This document shows, one piece after another, positions 6,296-22,074 of a stretch of 33,023 nucleotides of DNA (position 1 is the stretch's first letter; every line of letters begins with the position of its first letter). Origin of the DNA: a virus (lineage: Duplodnaviria > Caudoviricetes). The DNA is taken from IMG/VR virus record IMGVR_UViG_3300025508_000085, positions 1 to 33,023 of that record. One strand, written 5' to 3'. Made by a program: the position numbers and the translations under genes. The notes under the pieces are model-generated. The model was given only the letters and a program-made list of their open reading frames with translations, searched no databases and was not told the origin of the DNA.

Positions 6296-8749
6296 ATGGC
6301 AAAAAGAAGAAATAGAAAAAGAAGCGGTGGAATAGCTAGACAAGACTATACTCAAGGTGGTAGAGTTGGGTATCAGCGTGGAAAGGTTGTAGTAGATAGA
6401 GAAACTGGTGAAATTATAGAACCAAGAGAACCAGAACCAACGCCTGCACCTACACCAGCTCCAACAAATGCCGGTACAGGTGGAAATGCCGGTACAGGTG
6501 GAAATGCCGGTACAGGTGGAAATGCCGGTACAGGTGGAAATGCCGGTACAGGTGGAAATGCCGGTACAGGTGGAAATGCCGGTACAAGTGGAAATGCCGG
6601 TACAGGTGGAGGGGGAGATTCTGCTGAAACAGAAGAACAAAGAATAGCAAGAGAAGCTCAAGAAGCTCAAGACGAAAAAGATAGATTGGCAAAAGAAGAA
6701 GCTAGATTGGCTGAAGAAGCTAGATTGGCTGAAGAAGCTAGATTGGCTGAAGAAGCTAGATTGGCTGAAGAAGCTAGATTGGCAGCAGAAGAAGCTAGAT
6801 TGGCTTCTGCCCGTGCTCAAATGAAGAGAGATACTACTGCAGATAGAGAAAGGACTGCTCGTATTCAAGAGACTGCTGATACTATTACACAATCTGCACA
6901 AGGTGTTGTACCTGAGTCTGCGGTTATTCCCGATGCTGTTAAAGTTGGTGGAATGCAAAGAGATTCGGCTGGTAATCTTATATTAGACGAAGAAGGAAAT
7001 CCAATTCCAGTTGTTGCGGATAGTGTTGTAACGCAAATGGCTGCTATTCCAACAGCAGAAAAAGCAGGAGCAGATACTGTAAAGATTATAGGAGAGGACA
7101 GCGTTTTACAGCCAGAAGTTGTAGATACTGTTTCAGAGACCGAAATGGGAACAGCTTCTGGTCCAGCAGAGCCTATAACAGCCGGATCATTTACAGGAGA
7201 TCAGGTAGGTGTTAATGCTCAAGTAGATGCTGCACAGGGACAAATATCACAAAATGCTATTGCACAAGCTGCAGGGGTTGAACGTATAGACCCAACTCAA
7301 TCTGCAACCATTGAAATTAAAGAAGGTGCATTAACTGAAAGAGTTATAGGTACGTTAAGTGAAGGAGCCAAATCAACTGCTGCTATGAACGTAGGTAGTT
7401 CTTTATCACGTATTACAAGGGCTAAGAAACAACTAGCAAATGCTGGACTAAGTGATGCAGATATTACAGAGCTTGGTAATGACCCAGAAGCTTTAGAAGA
7501 TAGACTAGCAGACTTTAGTGAAGAACAACGAGGTATTATTGAAGGCTTACCACAAGAAGCATTAGTATCTAATCAGCTAGATAGTTTATTAAGTGGTATT
7601 GAAGAAGGTGAAATTCCTGCATGGGCAAGACCTGCTGTTGCATCAGTAGAATCTATGTTAGCTCAACGTGGTATGGAAGCTTCAACTGTAGGTAGAGATG
7701 CCTTGTTCAATGCTATTATAACATCAGCTATGCCGATGGCTCAGTCTAATGCACAAGCGATACAAGCTAGTGTTGGACAACAAAGAACTATCGAAGCTCA
7801 AGAATCTGAAGCTAACGCTGCAAGAGTACAACAGACAGCACTAACAAATGCCAGTAACGTTTTTCAAATGGATATGGCTCAGTTTAGTTCTGACCAGCAG
7901 ATAGCACTTTCTAATAGTAAGTTTTTACAAACTGTAAGTATTACAGATGCTACAATGAATCAACAAACTATTATACAAGATGCAGCATTGATGTCTCAGG
8001 CTAATTTAACTGAAGCAGACTTTAATCAAAAAGCTCAAATACAAAATTCTCAAGCATTCTTACAAATGGATTTAACTAATCTAAGTAATGAACAACAATC
8101 AAATGTATTAAAAGCTCAACAAAATCAACAACGTTTGTTAAGTAATCAAGCTTCTACTAACGCATCGTTGCAGTTTAACGCTGCAAGTAAAAATCAAACT
8201 AATCAGTTTATGGCTAATCTTAATGCACAAATAAGTCAGTACAATGCTTCTCAAAAAAATGCAATGGCACAGTTTAATTCTACACAAGAAAACGCTGCTA
8301 CAGCCAGAGAAGCCCAAAGAGTTGCTGATGTTGCAAAATTTAATGCTCAACTAACTACACAAGTAGATCAGTTTAATGCTCAACAAGATTTTGCAAGGAA
8401 TCAATGGAATGCACAGAACGCTGCTGCTGTTGAAGCTTCTAATGTTCAATGGAGAAGACAGGCTAACACAGTTAATACTGCTTCACAAAATCAAATTAAT
8501 ATGCAGAACGCACAAAACGCTTTTGGTTTGTCATCACAGTCTCAGTCGTTTTTATGGCAAGAACTAAGAGATCAAGCAGACTTTGATTTTAGAGCTTATG
8601 AAAATACACAAAACAGAAATGCACAAATCGTAGCTACTGCGTTAGCAAACGAAGGTAAAGCCGGTGAAAAGTACGATGACTATCTTACAAACTTAGTAAA
8701 TAGTTTAGGCACATCATATCAAGCTGGACTTTATGGATATGGAGGATAA
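6296..8749 (+). CDS. Putative internal virion / ejection protein (817 aa) with tandem repeats and Q/N/A-rich helical C-half
   Basis: Long ORF in the structural arm; basic N-terminus, PEPTPAPTPAP linker, NAGTGG and EEARLA repeats, and a long NQ(F)N/AQ-rich coiled coil. Confidence 0.6.
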   Translation: MAKRRNRKRSGGIARQDYTQGGRVGYQRGKVVVDRETGEIIEPREPEPTPAPTPAPTNAGTGGNAGTGGNAGTGGNAGTGGNAGTGGNAGTGGNAGTSGNAGTGGGGDSAETEEQRIAREAQEAQDEKDRLAKEEARLAEEARLAEEARLAEEARLAEEARLAAEEARLASARAQMKRDTTADRERTARIQETADTITQSAQGVVPESAVIPDAVKVGGMQRDSAGNLILDEEGNPIPVVADSVVTQMAAIPTAEKAGADTVKIIGEDSVLQPEVVDTVSETEMGTASGPAEPITAGSFTGDQVGVNAQVDAAQGQISQNAIAQAAGVERIDPTQSATIEIKEGALTERVIGTLSEGAKSTAAMNVGSSLSRITRAKKQLANAGLSDADITELGNDPEALEDRLADFSEEQRGIIEGLPQEALVSNQLDSLLSGIEEGEIPAWARPAVASVESMLAQRGMEASTVGRDALFNAIITSAMPMAQSNAQAIQASVGQQRTIEAQESEANAARVQQTALTNASNVFQMDMAQFSSDQQIALSNSKFLQTVSITDATMNQQTIIQDAALMSQANLTEADFNQKAQIQNSQAFLQMDLTNLSNEQQSNVLKAQQNQQRLLSNQASTNASLQFNAASKNQTNQFMANLNAQISQYNASQKNAMAQFNSTQENAATAREAQRVADVAKFNAQLTTQVDQFNAQQDFARNQWNAQNAAAVEASNVQWRRQANTVNTASQNQINMQNAQNAFGLSSQSQSFLWQELRDQADFDFRAYENTQNRNAQIVATALANEGKAGEKYDDYLTNLVNSLGTSYQAGLYGYGG
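6467..6610 (+). repeat. 8 x 18-bp tandem repeat AATGCCGGTACAGGTGGA (NAGTGG)
   Basis: Read directly; the copies are identical apart from one substitution in copy 7 (NAGTSG). Confidence 0.95.
6695..6805 (+). repeat. 6 x 18-bp tandem repeat GAAGAAGCTAGATTGGCT (EEARLA)
   Basis: Read directly: five contiguous copies, one extra Ala codon, then a sixth copy. Confidence 0.95.
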
Positions 8750-8754
8750 AGAGA

Positions 8755-9462
8755 ATGGGATTTTTAAGAAAAAAAGCTAGGCAATTAAAAAAAGGAATTA
8801 AAAAACTTTTTAGTTCTTCTTTAGGTAGGATAGTGGGAGGTATTGCTCTCAGTATGATGTTTGGTCCTGTGGTTGATCGTATATTTCAAGGAGGTGCAAC
8901 TGCGGTTCCCGGCAAAGTAGCGGAAGAAGCCGGGAAAAAAGTTGTAGAAGAAGGTGCAAAAAAAGTAGCAGAAGAAGGTGCAAAAAAAGTAGCAGAAGAA
9001 GGTGCAAAGAAAGTAGTAGAAGAAGGTGCAAAGAACGTAGCAACTGACGCAATTGCATCAGATACTGTTACTGGAGCAGTAGAAAAAAACTTTATGCAAA
9101 AACTTGGTACTAATTTAAAAGAAGGTGCAATAGATATTGGAACAGGTATTAAAAATTTTGCAGTAGACCCTATTGGAAAAACTGGAGAATATTTAGGAGG
9201 TGGTAACTTTATTCCTGATGTTGCACAAGGTGTTTTAGGTTCAGTAGCAACTTCAGCAATTATCGGAGACCCTGAAGAACAATTTGTTAGTCGAGGTATT
9301 ATGCCACAACCAGTACAAGAACAAGCTCAAAATGCTTATGTACAAGCTGTACAAGCTCAAGTTCCTTCAATGCAAGGAATGAATTTTCAACAGATGAATC
9401 AAAGTTTATTATATGGAACATTATCTCCACAATATTTAATGTCACAACAACAATACGGTTAA
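8755..9462 (+). CDS. Putative virion protein (235 aa) with amphipathic/Gly-rich segments
   Basis: GGAGG upstream; basic N-terminus, hydrophobic segment LGRIVGGIALSMMFG, KKVAEEGA repeats. Confidence 0.55.
   Translation: MGFLRKKARQLKKGIKKLFSSSLGRIVGGIALSMMFGPVVDRIFQGGATAVPGKVAEEAGKKVVEEGAKKVAEEGAKKVAEEGAKKVVEEGAKNVATDAIASDTVTGAVEKNFMQKLGTNLKEGAIDIGTGIKNFAVDPIGKTGEYLGGGNFIPDVAQGVLGSVATSAIIGDPEEQFVSRGIMPQPVQEQAQNAYVQAVQAQVPSMQGMNFQQMNQSLLYGTLSPQYLMSQQQYG
8911..9042 (+). repeat. ~5.5 x 24-bp repeat encoding KKV(A/V)EEGA
   Basis: AAAAAAGTAGCAGAAGAAGGTGCA and its variants in tandem. Confidence 0.9.
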
Positions 9463-9471
9463 GGATACATT

Positions 9472-10068
9472 ATGGCAATATCAGAAAAAGCAATTAAATT
9501 TTTAGGAGATAGTTTAGATAAAGGTAGACCTGTACCGGGACAGTCTTTAACAAACTCTCCTCAAGAACCTTATAATTGGGAAAGACCACCTGAATTTACA
9601 AGTCCACGAGAAGCAATGTATAAAATATTTGATTCTTTGTTAGAAGAAGAAGCATTACTTAATACTCTATCAGCTTTAGACAACGGAGCAGGAGTTATAG
9701 ATATTGCATCGGTAGTATTGTATGCAGGTTTTATAGAGGGTAAGTGGAGTCCTGATTTAATGTTATTGTTGATGGAGCCAACCATGTATATGATTATTGC
9801 TCTGGCTCAAAAAGCAGACATTGATTTTAATTTAGATGCAGGAGACGATGAACAACCGGAAGAAATGAGTCCTGATACACAGCTATCAGAAATTAACAAA
9901 GGTGTTAAATCGTTACGAGAGCTACAACAAAAAGCAGCAGGACAGGTTAGTCCTATGTCTGTACCAAAAGAAGTAAAAGAAAGAATAGAAGAAACTGAAA
10001 TACCTCAAAGTTTATTAAGTAAAGTTTCAAAAAATCCACCTAAAAATTTATTAGGTAAAGAGGAATAA
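9472..10068 (+). CDS. Conserved hypothetical structural-region protein (198 aa)
   Basis: AAGGA RBS; motif RPVPGQSLT...PYNWERPPEF; co-linear in the operon. Confidence 0.55.
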   Translation: MAISEKAIKFLGDSLDKGRPVPGQSLTNSPQEPYNWERPPEFTSPREAMYKIFDSLLEEEALLNTLSALDNGAGVIDIASVVLYAGFIEGKWSPDLMLLLMEPTMYMIIALAQKADIDFNLDAGDDEQPEEMSPDTQLSEINKGVKSLRELQQKAAGQVSPMSVPKEVKERIEETEIPQSLLSKVSKNPPKNLLGKEE

Positions 10069-10070
10069 TT

Positions 10071-11771
10071 ATGGCAGATGATATATTTAAAGGTTTACTA
10101 GAAAGATCAAGCAGTCCCGGAACAAATTTTGGCGAGTTAGCTGGTGCTTATTTTTCTAGTCGTGGTAAAAAAAGTAATAGAGCTAGAAATGTATTGGTTG
10201 CTTCTTTGTTTTTTAACGCAGCAGAGCAAAGACGACAAGCAAATGTTATGCAAAAGTTACAAGATGTAGAAGATAGAAAACTTACAGAAATTGCAAATGC
10301 TCAATCTACTTATAAACAATACATGGATTTGTTAGCTAAAGATAAAGACATAAAAGAAAAAACAGCTACTCAATATTTTGATACTGTGGCAGAGGATTGG
10401 TTTAATAATCCTAATAATCACGATGCAGGATTTGATTCACGAGAATATGAAGATACTACAAGCCCCCTTTATAGATTAAAACAAAAAGAAAAAAACGAAT
10501 ATATAAACAAAATTTTATTACCTGAACATCAAGCAAGAATGTCTTCCATAGAAGGGTTAGATATAAAAAGTGAAGCGGATTTTCTAGCTCCAATTAAACA
10601 AGCATTTAAAGCAGAAAAAAGAAAAGTGGCTTCTCCACAAAATGTTAGTTTAGTTCATAAAGCTTTTAATAAATTAGGTATCGGTGATGATGAAAAATAT
10701 CAAACTGAATATAACGAAGCTAAAGCTGAGATGGATATCTTTAATCAAAAATTAGAGGGTTTAAATCCCGGAACTATTTATAGATTGAAAGATGAAAAGA
10801 CGGGTAAAGAACAGGTTTCTCCTGATATGATTGACACAGGCTATTCTATAAAGCTTGTAAATCCTTACGGTAATAAAGAGGTTAAGCTTACAGAAATTGA
10901 TAGACTTGGATTAAGTACAGAAGACCTCCAAGAAATTCCAACCTATAATGAGTTTGAGTTTAAAAATACACAAGAGTTTAAATCTTTACAAAGTCCTGTT
11001 GCTCGACAACTTGCGATACAATCGTTTAATGCTTTAGATGATAACCAAAAAACTGAAGATAATTTATTATCAGTTGTTGTAGCTGCTGCTGCAACAGACG
11101 TGTATCAACAACAACTAGCAACGTTTGAAGCAATTAAAAATCAAAATAAACCTACGATGCCACAAGGAATGAATGAAGATACTTTTAAAAAGTCTCAAGT
11201 TTATCAAGATTGGGAAAAGTCATATCAGCCCGGTGGAACACAGTACTATAAAGCTCGTCAACAAGCTGGACTACCTACTACTACACTTGACAAAGTAAGA
11301 GATGAAGTTCAAGATTTAATTTTATTTGATAAACAAGTTTTAGCAAAAGAAAAAACATTGAGTGAGAATACTAAACTATCTGACAAAGATAGAGAAACCC
11401 AACTACAATCATTTATAGATGAGAGAATTAATACTCACGTAGAAACTCACGCACAAAAGATTTTACAAGGTGGAGGAATAGATCAGTTCTTACAAGGCTA
11501 TATGCAATCATCTTTACAAAACTTAGATAGTTATTTACTTAGTAATCTAGGACAAGAACAAATTACTCAACTGGCTGCTACAAAAAATATTGCTCCTGCT
11601 GTCGCAGAACAACAAATTAGAAATATGAGAGTTTTTAATATTCTTCAAGGTCAACAAGCTTATAAATTAATCTTTGAAAAGTATGCACAAAGTGGTGGTG
11701 TTACAGACATTGATTTAGATGCTTTTAAAGAAGATTTAGGTGATATTGAAGTAATTATGGACATAGACTAA
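10071..11771 (+). CDS. Putative internal virion protein (566 aa, helical)
   Basis: GAGGA RBS; long K/E/Q-rich ORF immediately upstream of the giant gene, as in podovirus core-protein clusters. Confidence 0.5.
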   Translation: MADDIFKGLLERSSSPGTNFGELAGAYFSSRGKKSNRARNVLVASLFFNAAEQRRQANVMQKLQDVEDRKLTEIANAQSTYKQYMDLLAKDKDIKEKTATQYFDTVAEDWFNNPNNHDAGFDSREYEDTTSPLYRLKQKEKNEYINKILLPEHQARMSSIEGLDIKSEADFLAPIKQAFKAEKRKVASPQNVSLVHKAFNKLGIGDDEKYQTEYNEAKAEMDIFNQKLEGLNPGTIYRLKDEKTGKEQVSPDMIDTGYSIKLVNPYGNKEVKLTEIDRLGLSTEDLQEIPTYNEFEFKNTQEFKSLQSPVARQLAIQSFNALDDNQKTEDNLLSVVVAAAATDVYQQQLATFEAIKNQNKPTMPQGMNEDTFKKSQVYQDWEKSYQPGGTQYYKARQQAGLPTTTLDKVRDEVQDLILFDKQVLAKEKTLSENTKLSDKDRETQLQSFIDERINTHVETHAQKILQGGGIDQFLQGYMQSSLQNLDSYLLSNLGQEQITQLAATKNIAPAVAEQQIRNMRVFNILQGQQAYKLIFEKYAQSGGVTDIDLDAFKEDLGDIEVIMDID

Positions 11772-11785
11772 TATAGGAGTCTTAT

Positions 11786-14700
11786 ATGGCATCTCGCCTA
11801 GAATTAATCAGAAACCAAATAAAAGAAAATAATCCTAATTCAGGACTACTTGCTATGTCCGACCAACAGCTTGTAGGGTATCTTCACACAAATAAATATT
11901 CTGATAAAACATATAATGAGTTACAGCAACATTTATTAGGTAATATTAAACAAGATAAAGATGAAGAAATAGAAAACCCATATCAACAAGGGTGGGGTCA
12001 AAAAGTTTATCAATCTTTATTAGGTCCTGTTGGAACTTTATTACCAATAGCTCCAAAAGAAGTCAGACGTTCTCTTGGTGGGATACCTCAAAATTTAGCT
12101 GAAGGAACATCTGATTTATTTGATTTTTTAAAACTAAAAGACAAGACACCTGATGTTATAAAGAAAGGTGCACAGGAATTTGTAAACTTTACAAGCACTG
12201 CACTTGTTGGTCCAGAGTTAATGTCTGAAGGAAAGGTTGAAGAGCCTACAACTATAACAGGCTCGTTGGTTAAAGAGTTAGGAACTTTTGCTATTCCATA
12301 TGCTGGTAGTATGAAGCTACTAGGAGCAGGTCAAAAAGTATTAGAAGCTAGAAAAATTAATAAGTTGCAAAAAGCTTATAAAGATTCTAGAATTGTACGT
12401 CTTAAACCTAGATTCCCTAAAACATTAGCAGCTACAAAACTGTTAGCAAGTGGAGAGATAGCTTCACAATGGGTTATAAAACCGGAAGATGCTATTATGG
12501 GTCAGTTCTTAGGACAAATTGTTGGTGATGATAACGAACAACTTTCAGAACTACTTGATTTTGTTACTGCTGATAAAGATAAAACAGAGGGCGAAAATAG
12601 AATAGCTTTATTGTTTGATGGTTTATTTATGACTGGGGTTATTGGTGGTGTATTAAAGCTAGGTGGTTTAACATTTAGGTCTGGTAGAGAAATGTTTAAC
12701 TATTTTAAAAATGTTAAAAACTCTGCTACTCCCGAACAAAAAGAAACAATTGTAGAAACTATTAAAGAAGCTTCGGCAACTCCAAAGGCAAACAAAACCC
12801 CAAAACAACTTAAAAAACCGGGTGGTGATGAAACTCCTGTTAAGCTCTGGTCAGAAAGTTCTAATTCTTTTTTACGTGGTTTATCTCAAGCAGGAACTGT
12901 TACCAAAGATTTATTTTTTTCAGCTAGAGGATTTTTTAATCCTGAAGCATTTGCGTTATTTAATAAAAGTAAAGATGCTAAACTGGCGTGGGCAAGTAAA
13001 GGTGAGCAGTTAATGACCACAATGGAAAGACAAATTAGAACATTGGCAAAAGAAGGTAGGTGGTTTAGAGTAAATAAACAAGCCGAGAAAGAAGCAAACG
13101 CTGTGCTTGATGGATATTTACAAGGCTCGGTAAAATTAAAAGATTTACCTGAGTCAATGCAGTCTACTGCAAAAGAAATGAGAGATACGGTAGATGAATT
13201 GTCTAGGTTTTTATCTCAAAGTAAAGTGGTAGACCCTGAACTTAGAAAAGAAATTGTAGAAAATATAGGTTCTTATCTTAGAAAAACTTATAAAAAATTT
13301 GAAAATCCAGACTGGAGACCATCACAAGAAGTTATTGATAGGGCTGAAAATTTTATCTATGGTAAATTAAAAAGTACTAAATTAAGCAGAAGCAAAGGTA
13401 AAACGGATAAAGCATTACGTGAAGAAGCAAAAGCTGAAGTTAAAAATTTATTAAGCAACGCAAAATATAGTAAAAACTTTTTTGATTTTACGGATATTAT
13501 ATATGGTGCTAAAGACGGTAAAAAATTATTTAGAGAACGTCAAAAAATTGCACAGCCTATTCGAGATTTATTAGGAGAAGAAAATAATCCAAGTACAAGG
13601 GTATTTAGTACGATAAGAACTTTGTCAGAATATTTATATGACAGAAATTTAATGGAAAAATATTATAGACTTGGAAACAATAAATTCTTTTTTGAGAATC
13701 CAACCGGAAACTACAGAAGAATAATTGAGGGAAAACAATTTGGTCCTTTAGATGGTATGCATACAGATACTAAGACATACGCAACTTTAGTAAAACCACT
13801 TCAAACAAATATTAATAAATCTTTTTTTGATAATGTAGTAGGAGAATCGGTTTTAGGAGTGGCTAAATTAGCATTTGCTGCAAAAGGGTTTGCTCAGTCT
13901 GCAGCAACAGTTATTAATAATATTACCCACGAAAGAAACTTATTTGGTAGTGCTAAAATACTTTTAAATAATGGTATCAATCCATTAAGTAAAGAAACAT
14001 GGGAATCTGTAAGAACAGTAACTACTAAAATTAGAGGGTCTGGACAAAAAGAATATCAAGAGTTATATAATAAATATTTAAGGCTTGGGATTGTAAATCA
14101 AAATGCTCGTCTTGGAGATTTAAGATTGTTAATGCAGTCTGCTTCTAAAACAAACGCAGGTAGTTGGTTAAATCAATATAATCCATTTAAAAAGATTTAT
14201 AAAAAGCTAGAAGATATTTATGTGGCAGAAGACGATATCTGGAAAATTGTAGCGTTTGAAAAAGAATTAAAAACCTTACAACGAGCTTATCCTAATAAAG
14301 GAATTGCAGAGCTAGAAGACATGGCAGCAAAAATTGTTAGAAATACAATGCCAACGTATGATATGATTCCTACTGGAATTAAAGCACTAAGATATTCTCC
14401 ATATGGTAACTTCTTTTCGTTTCATGTTGAAAGATTTAGAAATATATTTCACACTTATAGACAAGGATTTGCAGAATTAAACAGTGGTAATAAAGTTTTA
14501 CAACAAAGAGGAGCTTTAAGACTTGGTTCTCAAACTACGTTAGGTACAGGTGTAGGAGCTTCTGCTGCAGATTATGTAACTGGAAATATGTCTGGACTAA
14601 GTGAAGAAGAAAGATATCATATTAAAGAAGTCAGTAAGCAAGAATACAACGGTGATCGTTGGATTTGGGACATGAACAAAAATGGTAAAATAGTTTGGGC

Positions 14701-17485
14701 AGATTTAAAATTTAATGACCCAGATGCTCCTGTAAGTGAAACCATTGTGTATCCTATTTATGATGCTATATTTGGCAAAGGCGAATTAGACCAAAGAGAG
14801 TTTGATGAGAGACTAGGACAGGCTTTTGCATCTTCTTTAAAAGAATTTTTTGAACCATTAACTACTGAAACATTATTATCAGAAGCTCTTATTGATAAAT
14901 TTTTAAGAAATGGTACAACAGAAGATGGACAATACATAGATGATTACATTGTGTCTGAGTCTCCTGATTTTGAAATCTATGCAAATAATCAAATTGCATC
15001 TTGGAAACACATTGCTGAAAAACTTTACAAAGTTGGAGCATACAAAAACTTAGAACGCTACGCAAAAGCTAAATCTGGCGATAAGGATATTTATGGTGTT
15101 GGTTATGATTTAAGTTCTGAAAAACTAGCAAACTTTACAGGGTTTAGATTTAATGTTATTGATGATAAACGACTTCTTAAAAGTTTACACATGGCATTGT
15201 TTAAATTTAATAGAGAAAGAAGTAATGCTACTACCGTAATGTATACGGATATAAAGAAAAAAGAAACAACCGTACAAGACTTTGTAAATAATTATACATT
15301 AGCAAACAAAATGTATTACAAACAATATGTAAAAACTAAAAATAAATTACATAGTTTACAAGAGCTAATGGAGTTTGATAACCTGAGAGAAAAAGAAGGT
15401 AAAGAAAAAATTTATAATCTTAACCAATCTAAAATTGATTTAGTTGTTAACGAAAGAATACAATCTTCTATAGTGGAAGATGATTTTAAAATCTTTACTC
15501 CTCAAATAGATTACTTTAAACCTATTGAACCGTCAACAGAAAAGATTGATGAGTTTATGCAGATGCATCCTGATGTAAATAGATCAGAGCTAAAAAATAT
15601 ATTAAAACAAATTTCAAATGATTTTAGAAAACTGCCCTTATTAGAGTTAAAAGAAGATTATAACGATGATCAATTAGAAGTAATTGAAAGACTTGGTTTG
15701 GCTAAAGGTGGTTTTGTTAAAGGACCAGATGTTGTTCCGTTTACTAAAGAAGACCCGGCTGATAGGATTAATCCACTAACAGGATTAAGTTATGACGAAG
15801 AAGCAGAAAGAAAACAGTTTGCTGAAGGTGGGGCTATTGAGTTTAGAAATAATCAAGAGTCTGCTAGAATGATGAAAAATATTGCAAAGGCTTTTCCATC
15901 AATAGAAAATCAACAATCCTTTATACAAAATATTTCTAAAACATTAGGTAAAAATGTAAAGAGTTTAGATAATAAAAGTTTGGCTTTAGTTACTGCAAGA
16001 ATACTAGATACATTCTATCCTGCACAAGATAACAGAAATAATAATATGTTAAAGTCTTTTAGCTTTGGTGATTATTCAAATCAACGAGAAAAAGTTTTAA
16101 AATATAATGAAACGGTTGCTATTAAAAGAATAAATAATTACTTTGAAAAACAAAAGAATCTTCAAGCACCGGGTTGGAATCCTACTAAAACTGCAGAATT
16201 ACTATCAGGTAGAGATACATATAGTGTAGGCGGTATTGTTTTAAGAAAAGTTATGCAGTTAAAAGCAGCAGGTAAAGATGTAGAATATGACCCATCGGCA
16301 GCACAGAAAACACAGATAGCTACAACAGGTGGTACCTATGAAAAAGCTTCTAAAATAATGGATGATTATAATGCATATGATTCATTAGATTATGGTTCAG
16401 GCATACAAATTAATCAAGCTAGACAAGTTTTAAAAGCTGATACATACGAACCATATCCACAATTAGATAAGGCTAACAAGTATGGTACTCCAGACTTTGT
16501 AGAACCGGAAGAAATTACACGTAAGTATAATTTTATTACTAACTTCTCAGTGTTAAATGTATTACCAAAACTAGATAGAGATAAAGCTGTTAAACATATT
16601 GGCTCGTTGTTACAAGATAATGGTGTTGCTGTTATAACTGTACGGTCAAAAGATGATGTATTAAAAGCTTTACCCAATGCAAAGAAACAATTATCTGATT
16701 CAGAATTAATTACAGCAAGAGGTACATATCAAAAAGGTTTTACTCGTGATGAGCTTAAAAAATATTTAAGTGAAACTCTTGGTAAAGGTTATGAAGTAAT
16801 GGACTTGCCTAACAAATATAAAATGTCAGGTGTAGGTGTCCTTATAAAAAAATCTCCAAGAAGTAAATTTTCTGAAGGTGGCAAGGTTTCTACCAACGAA
16901 CAAATGGAGAGGTTAGGTTTTAAACATGGTGGTCCACATAGTGCTGCTGAAACTATATTACAAACAGTAGCAAAAAAACGAGGATGGACACCTGAACAAA
17001 CAAATTTATTTAGACAATTTGCAGACGATGTAGGATGGGTCGAAGCTGATAGTATACCAACTCGTACACAAAACGATGATCCTAAAGGAATAGGTCGTGG
17101 TAAATATCAAGTTGAAATGGATAGTTTAAGAAAAGAAGCTGCTAAAAATAATCCAGAGGAATATAAAAGATATAAAGACTTAACTGGTTCTAGTTCAGTA
17201 TATGTAAATAGGTATAAAAATTATAAAGCAAAAAATAATCTACCATTAACAAAAGACGAAATAGAACTATTTAAAAATAAAGATTTAGATTTTTCTCAAA
17301 TACCAGAAGATTTACAGGATGCAATGTTTTATACAGATAAATTACAAAAACCAAATTTTGCTGTAGATGATTTAGTCACAGGAAAAATAAGTTCGAATGA
17401 TGCGTGGTATAACTATCATTATGCTGGAAAAGATGAATCAAAAAGAAATTTATTTAATGAACGACTAGCTATGAGACCACAATAA
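11786..17485 (+). CDS. Giant internal virion / ejection protein (1899 aa) with C-terminal SAM-methyltransferase and lysozyme-like modules
   Basis: AGGAG RBS; helical body with EDDIWKIVAFEKE...AAKIVRNTMPTY...PYGNFFSF; LDYGSG...SVLNV...GTYQKGF methyltransferase segment; VEAD...GRGKYQ...DFS...QD muramidase-like segment. Confidence 0.7.
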   Translation: MASRLELIRNQIKENNPNSGLLAMSDQQLVGYLHTNKYSDKTYNELQQHLLGNIKQDKDEEIENPYQQGWGQKVYQSLLGPVGTLLPIAPKEVRRSLGGIPQNLAEGTSDLFDFLKLKDKTPDVIKKGAQEFVNFTSTALVGPELMSEGKVEEPTTITGSLVKELGTFAIPYAGSMKLLGAGQKVLEARKINKLQKAYKDSRIVRLKPRFPKTLAATKLLASGEIASQWVIKPEDAIMGQFLGQIVGDDNEQLSELLDFVTADKDKTEGENRIALLFDGLFMTGVIGGVLKLGGLTFRSGREMFNYFKNVKNSATPEQKETIVETIKEASATPKANKTPKQLKKPGGDETPVKLWSESSNSFLRGLSQAGTVTKDLFFSARGFFNPEAFALFNKSKDAKLAWASKGEQLMTTMERQIRTLAKEGRWFRVNKQAEKEANAVLDGYLQGSVKLKDLPESMQSTAKEMRDTVDELSRFLSQSKVVDPELRKEIVENIGSYLRKTYKKFENPDWRPSQEVIDRAENFIYGKLKSTKLSRSKGKTDKALREEAKAEVKNLLSNAKYSKNFFDFTDIIYGAKDGKKLFRERQKIAQPIRDLLGEENNPSTRVFSTIRTLSEYLYDRNLMEKYYRLGNNKFFFENPTGNYRRIIEGKQFGPLDGMHTDTKTYATLVKPLQTNINKSFFDNVVGESVLGVAKLAFAAKGFAQSAATVINNITHERNLFGSAKILLNNGINPLSKETWESVRTVTTKIRGSGQKEYQELYNKYLRLGIVNQNARLGDLRLLMQSASKTNAGSWLNQYNPFKKIYKKLEDIYVAEDDIWKIVAFEKELKTLQRAYPNKGIAELEDMAAKIVRNTMPTYDMIPTGIKALRYSPYGNFFSFHVERFRNIFHTYRQGFAELNSGNKVLQQRGALRLGSQTTLGTGVGASAADYVTGNMSGLSEEERYHIKEVSKQEYNGDRWIWDMNKNGKIVWADLKFNDPDAPVSETIVYPIYDAIFGKGELDQREFDERLGQAFASSLKEFFEPLTTETLLSEALIDKFLRNGTTEDGQYIDDYIVSESPDFEIYANNQIASWKHIAEKLYKVGAYKNLERYAKAKSGDKDIYGVGYDLSSEKLANFTGFRFNVIDDKRLLKSLHMALFKFNRERSNATTVMYTDIKKKETTVQDFVNNYTLANKMYYKQYVKTKNKLHSLQELMEFDNLREKEGKEKIYNLNQSKIDLVVNERIQSSIVEDDFKIFTPQIDYFKPIEPSTEKIDEFMQMHPDVNRSELKNILKQISNDFRKLPLLELKEDYNDDQLEVIERLGLAKGGFVKGPDVVPFTKEDPADRINPLTGLSYDEEAERKQFAEGGAIEFRNNQESARMMKNIAKAFPSIENQQSFIQNISKTLGKNVKSLDNKSLALVTARILDTFYPAQDNRNNNMLKSFSFGDYSNQREKVLKYNETVAIKRINNYFEKQKNLQAPGWNPTKTAELLSGRDTYSVGGIVLRKVMQLKAAGKDVEYDPSAAQKTQIATTGGTYEKASKIMDDYNAYDSLDYGSGIQINQARQVLKADTYEPYPQLDKANKYGTPDFVEPEEITRKYNFITNFSVLNVLPKLDRDKAVKHIGSLLQDNGVAVITVRSKDDVLKALPNAKKQLSDSELITARGTYQKGFTRDELKKYLSETLGKGYEVMDLPNKYKMSGVGVLIKKSPRSKFSEGGKVSTNEQMERLGFKHGGPHSAAETILQTVAKKRGWTPEQTNLFRQFADDVGWVEADSIPTRTQNDDPKGIGRGKYQVEMDSLRKEAAKNNPEEYKRYKDLTGSSSVYVNRYKNYKAKNNLPLTKDEIELFKNKDLDFSQIPEDLQDAMFYTDKLQKPNFAVDDLVTGKISSNDAWYNYHYAGKDESKRNLFNERLAMRPQ

Positions 17486-18435: not shown

Positions 18436-19539
18436 GTGTCAAGAGGTGATTTAAATAGAGGATTTTTTGGACCATTATTTATATTAGGTTTATTAACAGT
18501 ATCGTTTGTTGCAAGTGCAGACCAAACAGGAGACTGTACTTCGGGTACACAGTATTGTGAAGACAATGGTTTAACTACTATTAATACTACGGTGACTACA
18601 AATACTAACACCAATAACAATACTAATAATAATACCAACACCAATACTAATACAAATAGTAATACGAATAATAATACTAATATAAATACTAATACTAACA
18701 CTTCGACTAACAATAATAACAATGTTAATACCTCAACTAACACAAATAACAACGTTAATACTTCCACATCTACAAGCAATAATACCAATACTAATAACAA
18801 CGTCAACACATCTACGTCTACATCTAACTCTACTGTAAACTCTACAGTAAATCAGAATGTAAATAACAACAGTAATTCTACTAGTAACAATACAAATACT
18901 AATAACAATACAAACGTTAATCAATCTACGTCAGACTCTAATGTTACAACAGATAATACTAATACTAATAATAACAATACAAAGTCGGATAACACTAACC
19001 GGAATATAAACGAGTCTAACTCTACTCAAACAATCAACCAGAATGTACGTAGTAAAGCACCTCCTGCTTCTGCTATAGCACCTAGTATCATGTCTTACTC
19101 ACAAGACCTATGTACTGTAGGACGTTCTGGTGCGTTTCAAGGGCAAGTATTTGGGTTCTCTACAGGAGCTACTGTGACTGACGAGAACTGTGAACGCTTA
19201 AAACTTTCCAAGTATCTCTATGATACCGGTATGAAAGTTGCTTCAGTATCTATACTTTGTCAAGACCCAAGAGTATTTAAGGCTATGGAAATGGCTGGTA
19301 CTCCTTGCCCTTATCAAGGTCAGATAGGTAAAGAAGCTACCAAAGCTTGGGCAGAAAACAAATCTAAAAGACCTGATGCTAAAGAACAAGAAAAACTTTT
19401 TATACAGCAATGCACACACGATAGAAATCCTAACAGAGACAAGATAAATAAAGATGTTGTTGGGGCAGTCAAAGTTATTTATACAACTAAAACTAAAACT
19501 AAAAGGCAATGCAGAAAAGAATTTTATGCTACGCAGTAG
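18436..19539 (+). CDS. Secreted protein with Asn/Thr-rich tract and Cys-containing C-terminal domain
   Basis: GTG with AGGAG RBS; signal peptide ending ASA; ~150 aa N/T tract; SAIAPS...DLC...NCERLK...CQD...TPCP domain. Confidence 0.7.
   Translation: MSRGDLNRGFFGPLFILGLLTVSFVASADQTGDCTSGTQYCEDNGLTTINTTVTTNTNTNNNTNNNTNTNTNTNSNTNNNTNINTNTNTSTNNNNNVNTSTNTNNNVNTSTSTSNNTNTNNNVNTSTSTSNSTVNSTVNQNVNNNSNSTSNNTNTNNNTNVNQSTSDSNVTTDNTNTNNNNTKSDNTNRNINESNSTQTINQNVRSKAPPASAIAPSIMSYSQDLCTVGRSGAFQGQVFGFSTGATVTDENCERLKLSKYLYDTGMKVASVSILCQDPRVFKAMEMAGTPCPYQGQIGKEATKAWAENKSKRPDAKEQEKLFIQQCTHDRNPNRDKINKDVVGAVKVIYTTKTKTKRQCRKEFYATQ
18580..19045 (+). repeat. Low-complexity (N/T/S)-rich coding tract
   Basis: AAT/AAC/ACT codon runs; recurring TNNNVNTSTST units. 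Confidence 0.85.
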
Positions 19540-21659
19540 CGTGTCTCTTAAGTCTTAATGTCTTTAGTCAGTATATCTACGAAGGCAATCAGTCTTTAGT
19601 AGACCTCACTAATCAATCAGGTACAACCAACTTAAACTCAGGAGACGATAGAGTATCTAATGCTTTTAGTCTAGGGTTTAACTTTGATTTTTATAATCAG
19701 ACATTTAATTCTGCTAGAATGGCTACCAATGGTTGTCTTCACTTTAAAACCTCTGGAGCTTACTGCTCAGATTATACACCCGACCCTTTAGCAAATCAGT
19801 ATACTTATACTATGCTACCTTTTTGGACTGACCTCATACGAGATAACGGTTCTAAGATGTTAGCTAAAAGCTTTAGCGATAAGACAGTCTTTGGTTGGTA
19901 TGATATGCGTGAATACAACCGTGCATCTGATAACAGTTTTGAAGTTATATTATGGACTAACGATACCTTTGAGTATAGATATGGTGCATTAGATATAATT
20001 AATCACGATGTTTTAATTGGTGAAGTGGGTAGTGGTAGCTCTGAAGTCTATCAATATTTGTATCACGATGAATGTAGCACAGGTACAACTAACTCTAGTA
20101 GCTGTGTAAGTACTAATTGGAACGACACCTCTGCTAATACTTTGCTAGAAAATGGTGGTTCGTTATATGGTTCTGGTAGTGGTAATGATATTGATTGTAG
20201 TAATCCTCTAAACAATTCAAGCTGTTCAGGTTATGCAGCAGCTTATCAAACTCAACAGTGCGACATAGACCAGTTATACTCTGAGTCATGTCCTTACTAT
20301 TGGGATGCCTATGACGATCTTCAGTGTAATCTAGACCCACAGTATGGACCATTCTGTCAAGGCTATAGACAAGAAGATTCAGTGGCTTACTTTGAAGAAG
20401 AGATTGACTATGGTTATCAAGAAGAGTATGACATGTATGACACTTTTGAAGAGCCAGAAATCTTTGAAGAGTATGTCTTTGAACTTGAGTATGACTTTTT
20501 TGAAGAGCCTGAGTATGTATACGAAGAAGAGATAATCTTTGAACAGATGTTTCCTCGTGAAGAATACTACGAACCTTTTGAAATCATGCATGACTTACCT
20601 ATGCACGAAGAAGAAATCTTTATGCCGGTGGAAGAGTTGTTGATTGAGGAGTTTATCTTTCAAGAAACATTCCTTGTAGAAGATTATAGAGAACCTGAAA
20701 CGTTTATTGAATTGGAAACTATTGAAGAACTGGAGGAATGGTTTGAGGAAGAGACAAGAATGGAAGAAGAACTTGCGTATGCAGAAGAGCCGGAAGAAGA
20801 ATTTATTGAAGAAGTCTTTGAAGAAGAAGCTGTAGAAGAAGTTTTTGAAGAGATAGAAGAAATGCGTGAGGAGATGGAAGAAGAACGTATAGCTGAAGTA
20901 GAAGAAGAAAGAGTAGAAGAACTGCAAGAAGAAGAGATAGTTGTTGGTGCTATACTACCAGAAGGTAAGAGTTCAATAAGTAGAGAAATGGCACTGAACG
21001 TTATCTCCTCTACTCTAAGTACAGCTCAAGCTAGTGTTAGTGGAACTACATCAGGTAGTTCTATACACGCTACAGGTGGCACGACAGGAGCTTCTAGCGT
21101 ATCATCATCTAATTCTAGCGGTGGTATGAGTACAAGTAACTCACCTAGTATGTCAGCACAGTTTGCATCGTCTACTGCACAAAACAATCAAGTATTAGAC
21201 ATGAGTACAAGCTTTAGTGTAAGTAATTCTACAAGCTCTGTAAGCGTTGAAGCTGAGACAGTTGAGACAACGAGTGTCGTAGCTGCTGTAACACCTACTC
21301 AAACTTTACAAAGTCAAATAGATGTGTCAGTCTCTACAGATGCATCAGCTACAGAGACAGAACAAACTGTAGCCAATGTCATAGCCCAGAATTTACAAGC
21401 TGCTCAAGATGATGTTGAAGCTAAACAAGAAGAGACCGGTGAGTATGGCTCAGAGAATACTATCATAGCTTACATGGGATTTGTACCTAACTTTAATAAC
21501 TATAGATTAGTTACAATACCGGACCAAGATATGTGGTACGAGTCTACAGATATTTATGCCAACAATATGTTGTCAGATAACATCGAAGGCTTTTATCAAA
21601 TGGCAGGACAAAGTTTAGAAACATTAATTGAAATGAGACAATTACAACCACCACTATAA
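19509..21659 (+). CDS. Secreted protein with NIDO-like domain, Cys repeats, Glu-rich and Ser-rich tracts (716 aa)
   Basis: Signal peptide; LGFNFDFY...TNGCLHF...LPFWTDL...NSFEVIL...YRYG resembles nidogen-like domains; three C-x9-C-x2-Y repeats; ~190 aa acidic tract. Confidence 0.65.
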   Translation: MQKRILCYAVACLLSLNVFSQYIYEGNQSLVDLTNQSGTTNLNSGDDRVSNAFSLGFNFDFYNQTFNSARMATNGCLHFKTSGAYCSDYTPDPLANQYTYTMLPFWTDLIRDNGSKMLAKSFSDKTVFGWYDMREYNRASDNSFEVILWTNDTFEYRYGALDIINHDVLIGEVGSGSSEVYQYLYHDECSTGTTNSSSCVSTNWNDTSANTLLENGGSLYGSGSGNDIDCSNPLNNSSCSGYAAAYQTQQCDIDQLYSESCPYYWDAYDDLQCNLDPQYGPFCQGYRQEDSVAYFEEEIDYGYQEEYDMYDTFEEPEIFEEYVFELEYDFFEEPEYVYEEEIIFEQMFPREEYYEPFEIMHDLPMHEEEIFMPVEELLIEEFIFQETFLVEDYREPETFIELETIEELEEWFEEETRMEEELAYAEEPEEEFIEEVFEEEAVEEVFEEIEEMREEMEEERIAEVEEERVEELQEEEIVVGAILPEGKSSISREMALNVISSTLSTAQASVSGTTSGSSIHATGGTTGASSVSSSNSSGGMSTSNSPSMSAQFASSTAQNNQVLDMSTSFSVSNSTSSVSVEAETVETTSVVAAVTPTQTLQSQIDVSVSTDASATETEQTVANVIAQNLQAAQDDVEAKQEETGEYGSENTIIAYMGFVPNFNNYRLVTIPDQDMWYESTDIYANNMLSDNIEGFYQMAGQSLETLIEMRQLQPPL

Positions 21660-21660
21660 T

Positions 21661-22074
21661 ATGGCATACTCAAATAAAGTTGTAGATAGGTTTGAAGGAG
21701 TTTTAAATAACCCAGAAAAATATTCAGTCGGTAGATTTGACCCTAAAGATTTAGATGTGGGTACAGGTATGGTTGGTGCACCAGCCTGTGGTGATGTAAT
21801 GAAGTTACAAATTAAATGTAAACTACATGGTAACAGACATGTCATTGATGATGTTAAGTTTAAAACTTATGGATGTGGGTCAGCAATAGCATCAAGCACT
21901 ATGTTTGTTGACATGTTAAAAGGAAAGACAATAGAAGAAGCTTGTCAAATAAAAGATAAAGACATAGCTAAAGCTTTGGAGTTACCACCTATCAAGTTAC
22001 ATTGTAGTGTGTTAGCAGAGGATAGTATAAAACAAGCCATAAATGATTGGCAACAAAAACAAAACGGAGAATAA
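21661..22074 (+). CDS. iscU: Fe-S cluster assembly scaffold IscU (auxiliary metabolic gene)
   Basis: GTGMVGAPACGDVMKLQI, FKTYGCGSAIASS and LELPPIKLHCSVLAED; all three Cys, the Asp and the His are conserved. Confidence 0.95.
   Translation: MAYSNKVVDRFEGVLNNPEKYSVGRFDPKDLDVGTGMVGAPACGDVMKLQIKCKLHGNRHVIDDVKFKTYGCGSAIASSTMFVDMLKGKTIEEACQIKDKDIAKALELPPIKLHCSVLAEDSIKQAINDWQQKQNGE

Follow-up and report, generated by a model that had tools for sequence, protein, structure and literature searches.

The window analysed here is a whole 33-kb viral contig (33,023 nucleotides (nt); IMG/VR record IMGVR_UViG_3300025508_000085), and the subject of this analysis is a peptide motif, R-x-x-[FYL]-x-x-G-G, that punctuates the product of a giant open reading frame (ORF) of 1899 amino acids (aa), a predicted ejection protein. 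The motif marks the borders between the modules of this protein, and modules are exchanged in frame at its codons; its occurrence is confined to a few predicted head-internal proteins. The explanation we favour, with modest confidence, is that the motif is a maturation-cleavage joint of a polyvalent ejection protein, with a predicted cut before x-x-G-G.

The 1899-aa ORF holds exactly five copies of R..[FYL]..GG, at aa 1302, 1342, 1476, 1692 and 1709 (nt 15689, 15809, 16211, 16859 and 16910), as quoted in a preliminary description made from the letters alone, and none precedes aa 1302. In 20,000 shuffles of the ORF the mean was 0.07 copies and the maximum three, a test that overstates the rarity because the pattern was derived from the same five copies; conservation in other proteins is therefore the real, out-of-sample, test. 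Gly-Gly itself is not enriched in the ORF (10 pairs vs 8.2 expected, P=0.30). The protein is organized as follows:

11786..17485, + strand: giant 1899-aa predicted ejection (internal virion) protein, last gene of a five-gene block
11786..15688, + strand: conserved core of ~1300 aa, motif-free
15689..15712, + strand: motif copy 1, RLGLAKGG, at the border of core and C0
15713..15808, + strand: C0, conserved element of ~40 aa including its flanks, which may be a packaging or anchoring tag
15809..15832, + strand: motif copy 2, RKQFAEGG
15833..16210, + strand: 126-aa cargo module, predicted helical (low confidence)
16211..16234, + strand: motif copy 3, RDTYSVGG
16235..16858, + strand: class I S-adenosylmethionine (SAM)-dependent methyltransferase module
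16859..16882, + strand: motif copy 4, RSKFSEGG; methyltransferase fold matches stop at ~aa 1691-1693
16883..16909, + strand: spacer resembling the end of C0
16910..16933, + strand: motif copy 5, RLGFKHGG, the DNA exchange point of the terminal module
16934..17482, + strand: terminal module, predicted lysozyme-like (lead only)

Homologues of the giant protein numbered 119 matches, and conservation was assessed on the query and the best 86 (87 proteins; four of the 86, P0082-P0085, match the query only through its tail). The form R..[FYLMK]..GG is present in 81 of the 87, its first copy lying right after the core, at aa 903-1399. Splitting the 87 proteins at Gly-Gly gave 24 segment clusters, which occur in many orders, and of the 55 pairs among 11 module families only one exceeded 50% profile probability; several unrelated enzymatic domains are carried in one chain and vary between relatives. 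Under a looser pattern, internal ends of BLAST matches fell within 12 aa of a motif in 180 of 365 cases, distributed over 61 of 84 tails, compared to 38.7 for random placement (maximum 58 in 1000). The placement of the motif at module borders, and the expectation of the preliminary description that different domains would prove to be swapped at it, were thus borne out by the clusters, by the match ends and by exchange at the DNA level.

This exchange is exact to the base in the closest strains. Sixteen metagenome loci were compared as DNA, seven of them 94-100% identical to the window; one of the seven is identical, one (L062) lacks the 17 aa between copies 4 and 5, which are also absent from homologue P0001, and five have exchanged their ends. 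Homology to the window stops at position 16933, the last base of the Gly-Gly codons of copy 5, in L061, L063 and L065, at 16936 in L064 and at 16938 in L066; in all five it resumes at the stop codon, and each carries a different set of terminal modules. The strains that trade their last module at the Gly-Gly codons are 95-98% identical in DNA. Selection on the peptide, suspected earlier from the divergent codons of the copies, gained support in that all four Gly codons are used at both Gly positions, so that it is not the DNA alone that is kept; four Arg codons are used as well. A conserved Gly-Gly outside the motif (ATTGG; aa 1515-1516, positions 16328-16333), at the start of the methyltransferase fold, is no swap point. 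Two further loci, L073 (~2400-2500) and L074, encode giant proteins with the same methyltransferase and a similar large module and no strict Gly-Gly motif; their module borders carry an acidic joint, E-E-x-[ED]-A-[AG]-I, which may represent another joint code.

Across 37 loci searched with the strict motif, 49 copies were found in 32 of the 37 giant ORFs and 33 copies in 20 of the 25 orthologues (fragments included) of the 817-aa ORF of the same block, compared to none in the 350 other ORFs (72,643 aa) of these loci. The copies of the 817-aa type all begin within the first 34 residues, behind a basic leader, and are often 8 aa apart. In six longer records the motif also occurs in the post-portal gene and in small ORFs of the head region, and in no other ORF. 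These small, often basic motif ORFs near the terminase or capsid genes (L005:13563-14305, L050:15247-16592, L052:6471-6878 and L054:14560-14892) are candidate internal head peptides.

6296..8749, + strand: predicted ejection protein of 817 aa with a basic leader and N-terminal motif copies
6338..6361, + strand: sixth motif copy, RQDYTQGG, at the N-terminus of the 817-aa ORF, in frame
8755..11771, + strand: three intervening genes (235, 198 and 566 aa) without the motif, 0 copies in 20, 27 and 28 orthologous ORFs
L005:18974-19714, in G001, a second record with a 100% identical giant ORF: post-portal gene, tape-measure-type module with motif-delimited variable N-terminal segments

G001 contributes the terminase, portal and post-portal genes and ends behind the last of these. 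In the post-portal protein, motif copies surround a short module, for which matches were obtained to tape-measure PHROGs (best E 3e-12), to the solved tape measures PDB 8zdo and 8rk3 (E 1e-10 and 2e-4) and to lambda gpH (hhalign 93.5%). A motif of looser form links two PHROG families within a single 176-aa protein of G001. The module family comprises 6,040 representative proteins of 102-643 aa, bar five tape-measure-sized matches, and the closest isolates carrying the gene are the pelagiphages HTVC115P, HTVC104P and HTVC103P. Of 149 listed family members, 143 contain the loose motif, often between variable segments, and when a pattern that does not demand Arg was applied, Arg occupied the fixed position in 78% of motif contexts. 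Here x-x-G-G is followed by a conserved GE-containing module, whereas in the giant protein the motif leads into C0.

C0 was found by its profile, which was seeded on 37 of the 87 close homologues, in all 87 of them and in none of 33 distant ones, and it is C-terminal in 24. In about two dozen proteins a large module lies between the first motif and C0, so that cargo goes on either side of C0. What follows the element depends on its position: among ends that keep the Arg, the sequence QM.RLG[FL]xx of C0 is followed, where cargo lies behind, by GG in 36 and by G-x in 5 of 41 cases, and near the C-terminus by neither in 5 of 5. Because C0 ends some proteins and Gly-Gly tracks cargo, the minimal protein would consist of core, motif and C0; the motif appears where a module must be set apart. 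C0 is a conserved element rather than a spacer, and a role as packaging tag, offered earlier for the motif, suits this 40-aa stretch between the first two copies more than it suits the motif. A search for stand-alone proteins tagged with C0 gave one match among 102 candidates, probably a fragment, and C0 was not found in annotated phage genomes. In L023:7905-15258, the core and the cargo with motif and C0 are encoded by two overlapping ORFs, the second with its own start, which may be a real split or a frameshift.

With respect to the modules themselves, the methyltransferase label given in the preliminary description gained support from Pfam PF13489 (E 7e-6, just below the curated cut-off) and from class I SAM-methyltransferase fold matches over ~aa 1512-1693 (Z up to 6.9), which are to small-molecule and RNA methyltransferases. 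HTVC104P gp54 (L056:9564-14480) also has this module, flanked by motif-like borders, and it repeats its own N-terminal sequence just ahead of its last module. The lysozyme-like label of the last module is a lead, suggested by an ESM Atlas match (0.88; cluster with SLT in 15% of members). No Pfam, PHROG or NCBIfam match was obtained for the 126-aa module, which is missing from P0004 and P0005. In relatives, the terminal slot is occupied by SLT transglycosylase, glucosaminidase, phage tail lysozyme or ADP-ribosyltransferase-like domains, and the Pfam names obtained for modules of homologues are SLT, glucosaminidase, phage tail lysozyme, ART-PolyVal and methyltransferase; ART-PolyVal lies under its curated cut-off in relatives (best E 5e-6) and is lacking in the window's own protein. 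No peptidase domain was detected in the giant chain or in the modules of its relatives.

Adenovirus, African swine fever virus and ubiquitin-like proteases cut directly after Gly-Gly. A cut of this type, the model put forward in the preliminary description, is not supported: the only experimental comparators, T5 pb2 with its disputed cut at R1127 and crAss001 gp45 with a domain resolved from A425, place the break before A-x-G-G. According to the accessible parts of the reports, maturation cleavage converts T5 pb2 to pb2* and pb2C, and lambda gpH to gpH* and gpHC (10.1101/2022.09.20.507954; PMC11937520; PMC12617516). The T5 cut was assigned by mass spectrometry after R1127, where the protein reads SFVPR/AEGG (PMC11937520). 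For lambda, gpH* was estimated to span ~residues 1-710, with the cleavage site and its catalysis given as unknown in the available text of a 2025 paper (PMC12617516); A-x-G-G starts at residues 707, 711, 718, 734 and 779 of gpH, and the element between 734 and 779 is homologous to the post-portal module. The cargo protein 1 of crAss001, gp45, has eight A-x-G-G motifs vs 1.4 expected, and its resolved pieces, 214-245 and 425-552, of which the latter is described in the portion of the paper at hand as bound to the portal wing (PMC10172136), both lie between motif copies, A425 being the Ala of one. A cut at 1066 of JBD30 has been proposed, as far as the available text goes, from a prediction tool (PMC11445458). 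Because the T5, lambda and crAss001 comparators point there, a cut would probably fall before x-x-G-G and not after Gly-Gly. A likeness to the start of intein/Hint domains was dropped, the position before the aromatic residue not being Cys or Ser.

If the motif is such a joint, cutting would separate x-x-Gly-Gly from the aromatic or hydrophobic residue before it, either at head maturation or at injection. C0 may recruit the chain into the prohead, and the cut would free the core, in the way that lambda gpH* and T5 pb2* lose their C-terminal pieces; any further module, placed before or after C0 and equipped with a joint of its own, would come free by itself. For the window protein, the predicted pieces are of ~149, 4, 15, 24, 2 and 22 kDa. 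Wall hydrolases would then act in the periplasm, and the methyltransferase or an ADP-ribosyltransferase would reach the cytoplasm. The cut might be made by a peptidase of the host or by the tape-measure-type module whose gene lies next to that of the portal; work by Zweig and Cummings from 1973, judging by its title, is said to concern host involvement in T5 tail cleavage. The conserved codons of the joint also act as the recombination point for the in-frame trade of modules.

Several findings weigh against cleavage. No cut at the motif is known in this phage or its close relatives, and no maturation protease was matched in the complete relative G004 (Pfam, E ≤ 0.001), where the co-occurring protease anticipated by the preliminary description was sought: no GG-type cysteine protease was matched, and the only peptidase match was the tail-fibre chaperone S74, although such a search could miss a divergent or host-encoded enzyme. 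This search covered 61 of 66 ORFs, five small opposite-strand ORFs being omitted, genes at the contig ends not being called, and the cut-off giant ORF of G004 being replaced by the full copy from L026. The comparators are themselves contestable. The T5 site is disputed, for trypsin, too, cuts at R1127, and an earlier report gave V1148, according to the accessible text (PMC11937520); the authors of the crAss001 study regard gp45 as an unbroken chain and use neither 'cleavage' nor 'proteolysis' in the main text of their paper (PMC10172136). The position behind the predicted cut, Ala in the comparators, varies in this family (S 20%, F 15%, A 14%, Q 13% and V 12% of 105 contexts). Some borders carry no motif: in P0002, P0004, P0005, L064, L066 and L067-L069 another domain follows the methyltransferase directly. 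The second Gly can also be replaced by E, K, Q, T or V even with cargo behind. The 33 weaker homologues have neither the strict motif nor C0, and 10 of them have a looser motif. Finally, the counts of conservation and of match ends come from related sequences and are not independent events.

The motif could instead serve as a binding tag that stays uncut, a short strand docking on the portal, the scaffold or the post-portal module, with the modules packed as one chain. We consider this unlikely, although the tandem copies of the 817-aa type, 8 aa apart, would release only tiny peptides if cut, and although confinement to predicted head-internal proteins, the lack of a protease gene in the G004 search and the make-up of the motif, in which Arg and the hydrophobic residue are fixed and the intervening positions free, all suit a docking peptide, as does the accessible description of a domain of crAss001, led by A-x-G-G and bound to the portal wing. 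A tag accounts less well than a separator for a motif that is lost when C0 is the last element of the protein and restored when cargo comes after it; one copy per border also exceeds what single-chain packaging would need, and the T5 comparator is a cut site. It is likewise improbable that the motif is an uncut hinge or unfolding break, at which modules thread the portal and tail and refold, kept because its codons are the crossover point. Such a hinge would agree with the mapping of crossovers to the Gly-Gly codons and with a model of the tail (mean predicted local distance difference test (pLDDT) score 48) in which all five Gly-Gly pairs lie in coil and copies 4-5 form one low-confidence segment between two better-modelled domains; copies 1-3 lie in generally low-confidence regions where the model is too weak to place them. 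In the available text on the marine podovirus phiRIO-1, no clear processing of virion proteins is reported (PMC4819975), the motif status of these proteins being unchecked. A plain hinge, however, does not need the Arg that the post-portal contexts show at a fixed distance, and would leave the N-terminal copies with no domain in front unexplained.

A further possibility, that DNA recombination merely left a scar which is translated as the motif, with no role for the peptide, appears highly improbable. The exchanges do end at GGTGGT in five strains, and AGG is over-used at the motif Arg (24 of 82, vs 190 of 2,663 Arg codons in the giant ORFs), an excess that is expected because the DNA of the joints shares descent. 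A scar would hardly use four Gly and four Arg codons, nor be confined to the reading frame of certain proteins, some with copies at an N-terminus where there is nothing to swap, and the same peptide is found again in phages that are unrelated. A broader extension of the cleavage reading is that one peptide code is shared by long-tailed tape measures, crAss cargo proteins and podovirus ejection proteins, with the GE-containing module as an undescribed peptidase that reads it; we regard this as a long shot. In tape measures the module would act in cis; here it would act in trans, encoded by a gene of its own that occupies the position of a prohead protease between portal and scaffold. An enzymatic role of the post-portal module is hypothetical: its AlphaFold model is poor (pLDDT 61) and matched no known fold (no Foldseek match, best Z of 3.0 with VIA). 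Homology of the module to residues 425-552 of crAss001 gp45 was not detected, the only lead being an ESM match (0.84) to PF25725. If this extension were true, the module would be the missing enzyme of lambda gpH and T5 pb2 maturation, and these phages would possess a plug-in polyprotein system for injecting enzymes.

Should the motif prove to be a cut signal, tests in lambda, T5 and crAss001 could be aimed at exact positions. It would also follow that separate wall hydrolases, methyltransferases and ADP-ribosyltransferases are injected by a very common group of marine phages, and that near-identical strains trade these injected enzymes at a defined joint. The motif is also a simple marker for head-internal proteins in genomes of uncultured phages.

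The assignment of the giant protein as an ejection protein was made because its core matches proteins annotated as virion or structural, from Cellulophaga phage phi13:2 (E 3e-16) and HTVC027P (gp85, E 2e-22); with the gene position, these annotated matches suggest that the protein resides inside the virion and is ejected on infection. The window carries tail-fibre-like genes and the five-gene late block (817, 235, 198, 566 and 1899 aa), and on the other strand genes for primase-helicase, polymerase A and ribonucleotide reductase, named by their likeness to annotated genes of G004. The latter, of 52.7 kb, has the order terminase, portal, a 58-aa gene, post-portal gene, a 295-aa gene, capsid and tail; the 295-aa gene is, from its position, a putative scaffold gene, and the layout is that of a short-tailed phage. 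Maricaulis was not adopted as the host, the basis being only two contigs in one Maricaulis bin at 29% identity. Among the late genes of the window, a NifU/IscU-like Fe-S scaffold gene lies at 21661-22074 (PF01592, E 2e-38), and 18436-21659 encodes a 367-aa Asn/Thr-rich and a 716-aa acidic ORF with hydrophobic N-termini, the former matching only an unnamed PHROG and the latter none. In G004 (L044:10473-15261), genes for CsgF, CsgG, a FecR-domain protein and a CHASE2-guanylate cyclase replace these two secreted-looking genes and IscU, a difference that marks a variable slot behind lysis-type genes.

Among known systems, the cleaved tape measures resemble the present protein in that the assigned, though disputed, T5 cut lies directly before AEGG and the A-x-G-G motifs of lambda lie around the estimated end of gpH*. 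They differ in that the present phage is short-tailed, has no tape measure and carries many joints per chain in several proteins. Here, moreover, conservation lies with an Arg four residues ahead of the predicted cut and not with the Ala behind it. The gp45 of crAss001 likewise has a basic N-terminus followed by repeated x-x-G-G motifs, and its second resolved piece starts at a motif Ala, whereas it lacks detected homology to the post-portal module and its authors, in the text available, describe no cleavage. T7 gp14-gp16 and P22 gp7, gp20 and gp16 share with the window an internal-protein block after the tail genes, the largest protein last, and a wall hydrolase; in the part of the source available, the hydrolase of T7 is a fixed N-terminal domain, while here it is a swappable C-terminal module (PMC8954989). 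No window protein matched the T7 or P22 ejection proteins in sequence.

The closest likeness in architecture is to phage-type polyvalent proteins, large virion-associated chains with variable enzyme domains; wall hydrolases occur in the relatives of the window protein, as does, below its curated cut-off, ART-PolyVal (PF18760), which like LPD is typical of the class. For polyvalent proteins, the accessible text of Iyer et al. (2017; PMC5512222) already proposed processing or release of domains, through zincin-like MPTase domains, and gave NPP(Y/F) for their DNA adenine methylases; both domains are common in the class but not universal. The present chain differs in having no detected peptidase domain, in the lack of NPP in its methyltransferase sequence, and in the delimitation of its domains by one repeated peptide and a 40-aa element. 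The comparison drawn earlier with DarB of phage P1 is loose because the methyltransferase is without NPP(Y/F). A literature search, with subscription papers mostly outside its coverage, did not find the motif described as a shared joint. As far as these sources go, polyvalent virion proteins with proposed processing and the cleavage of tape measures are already in print; to these the window adds module exchange mapped to the base in near-identical strains, the conserved C0 and a motif whose presence depends on cargo.

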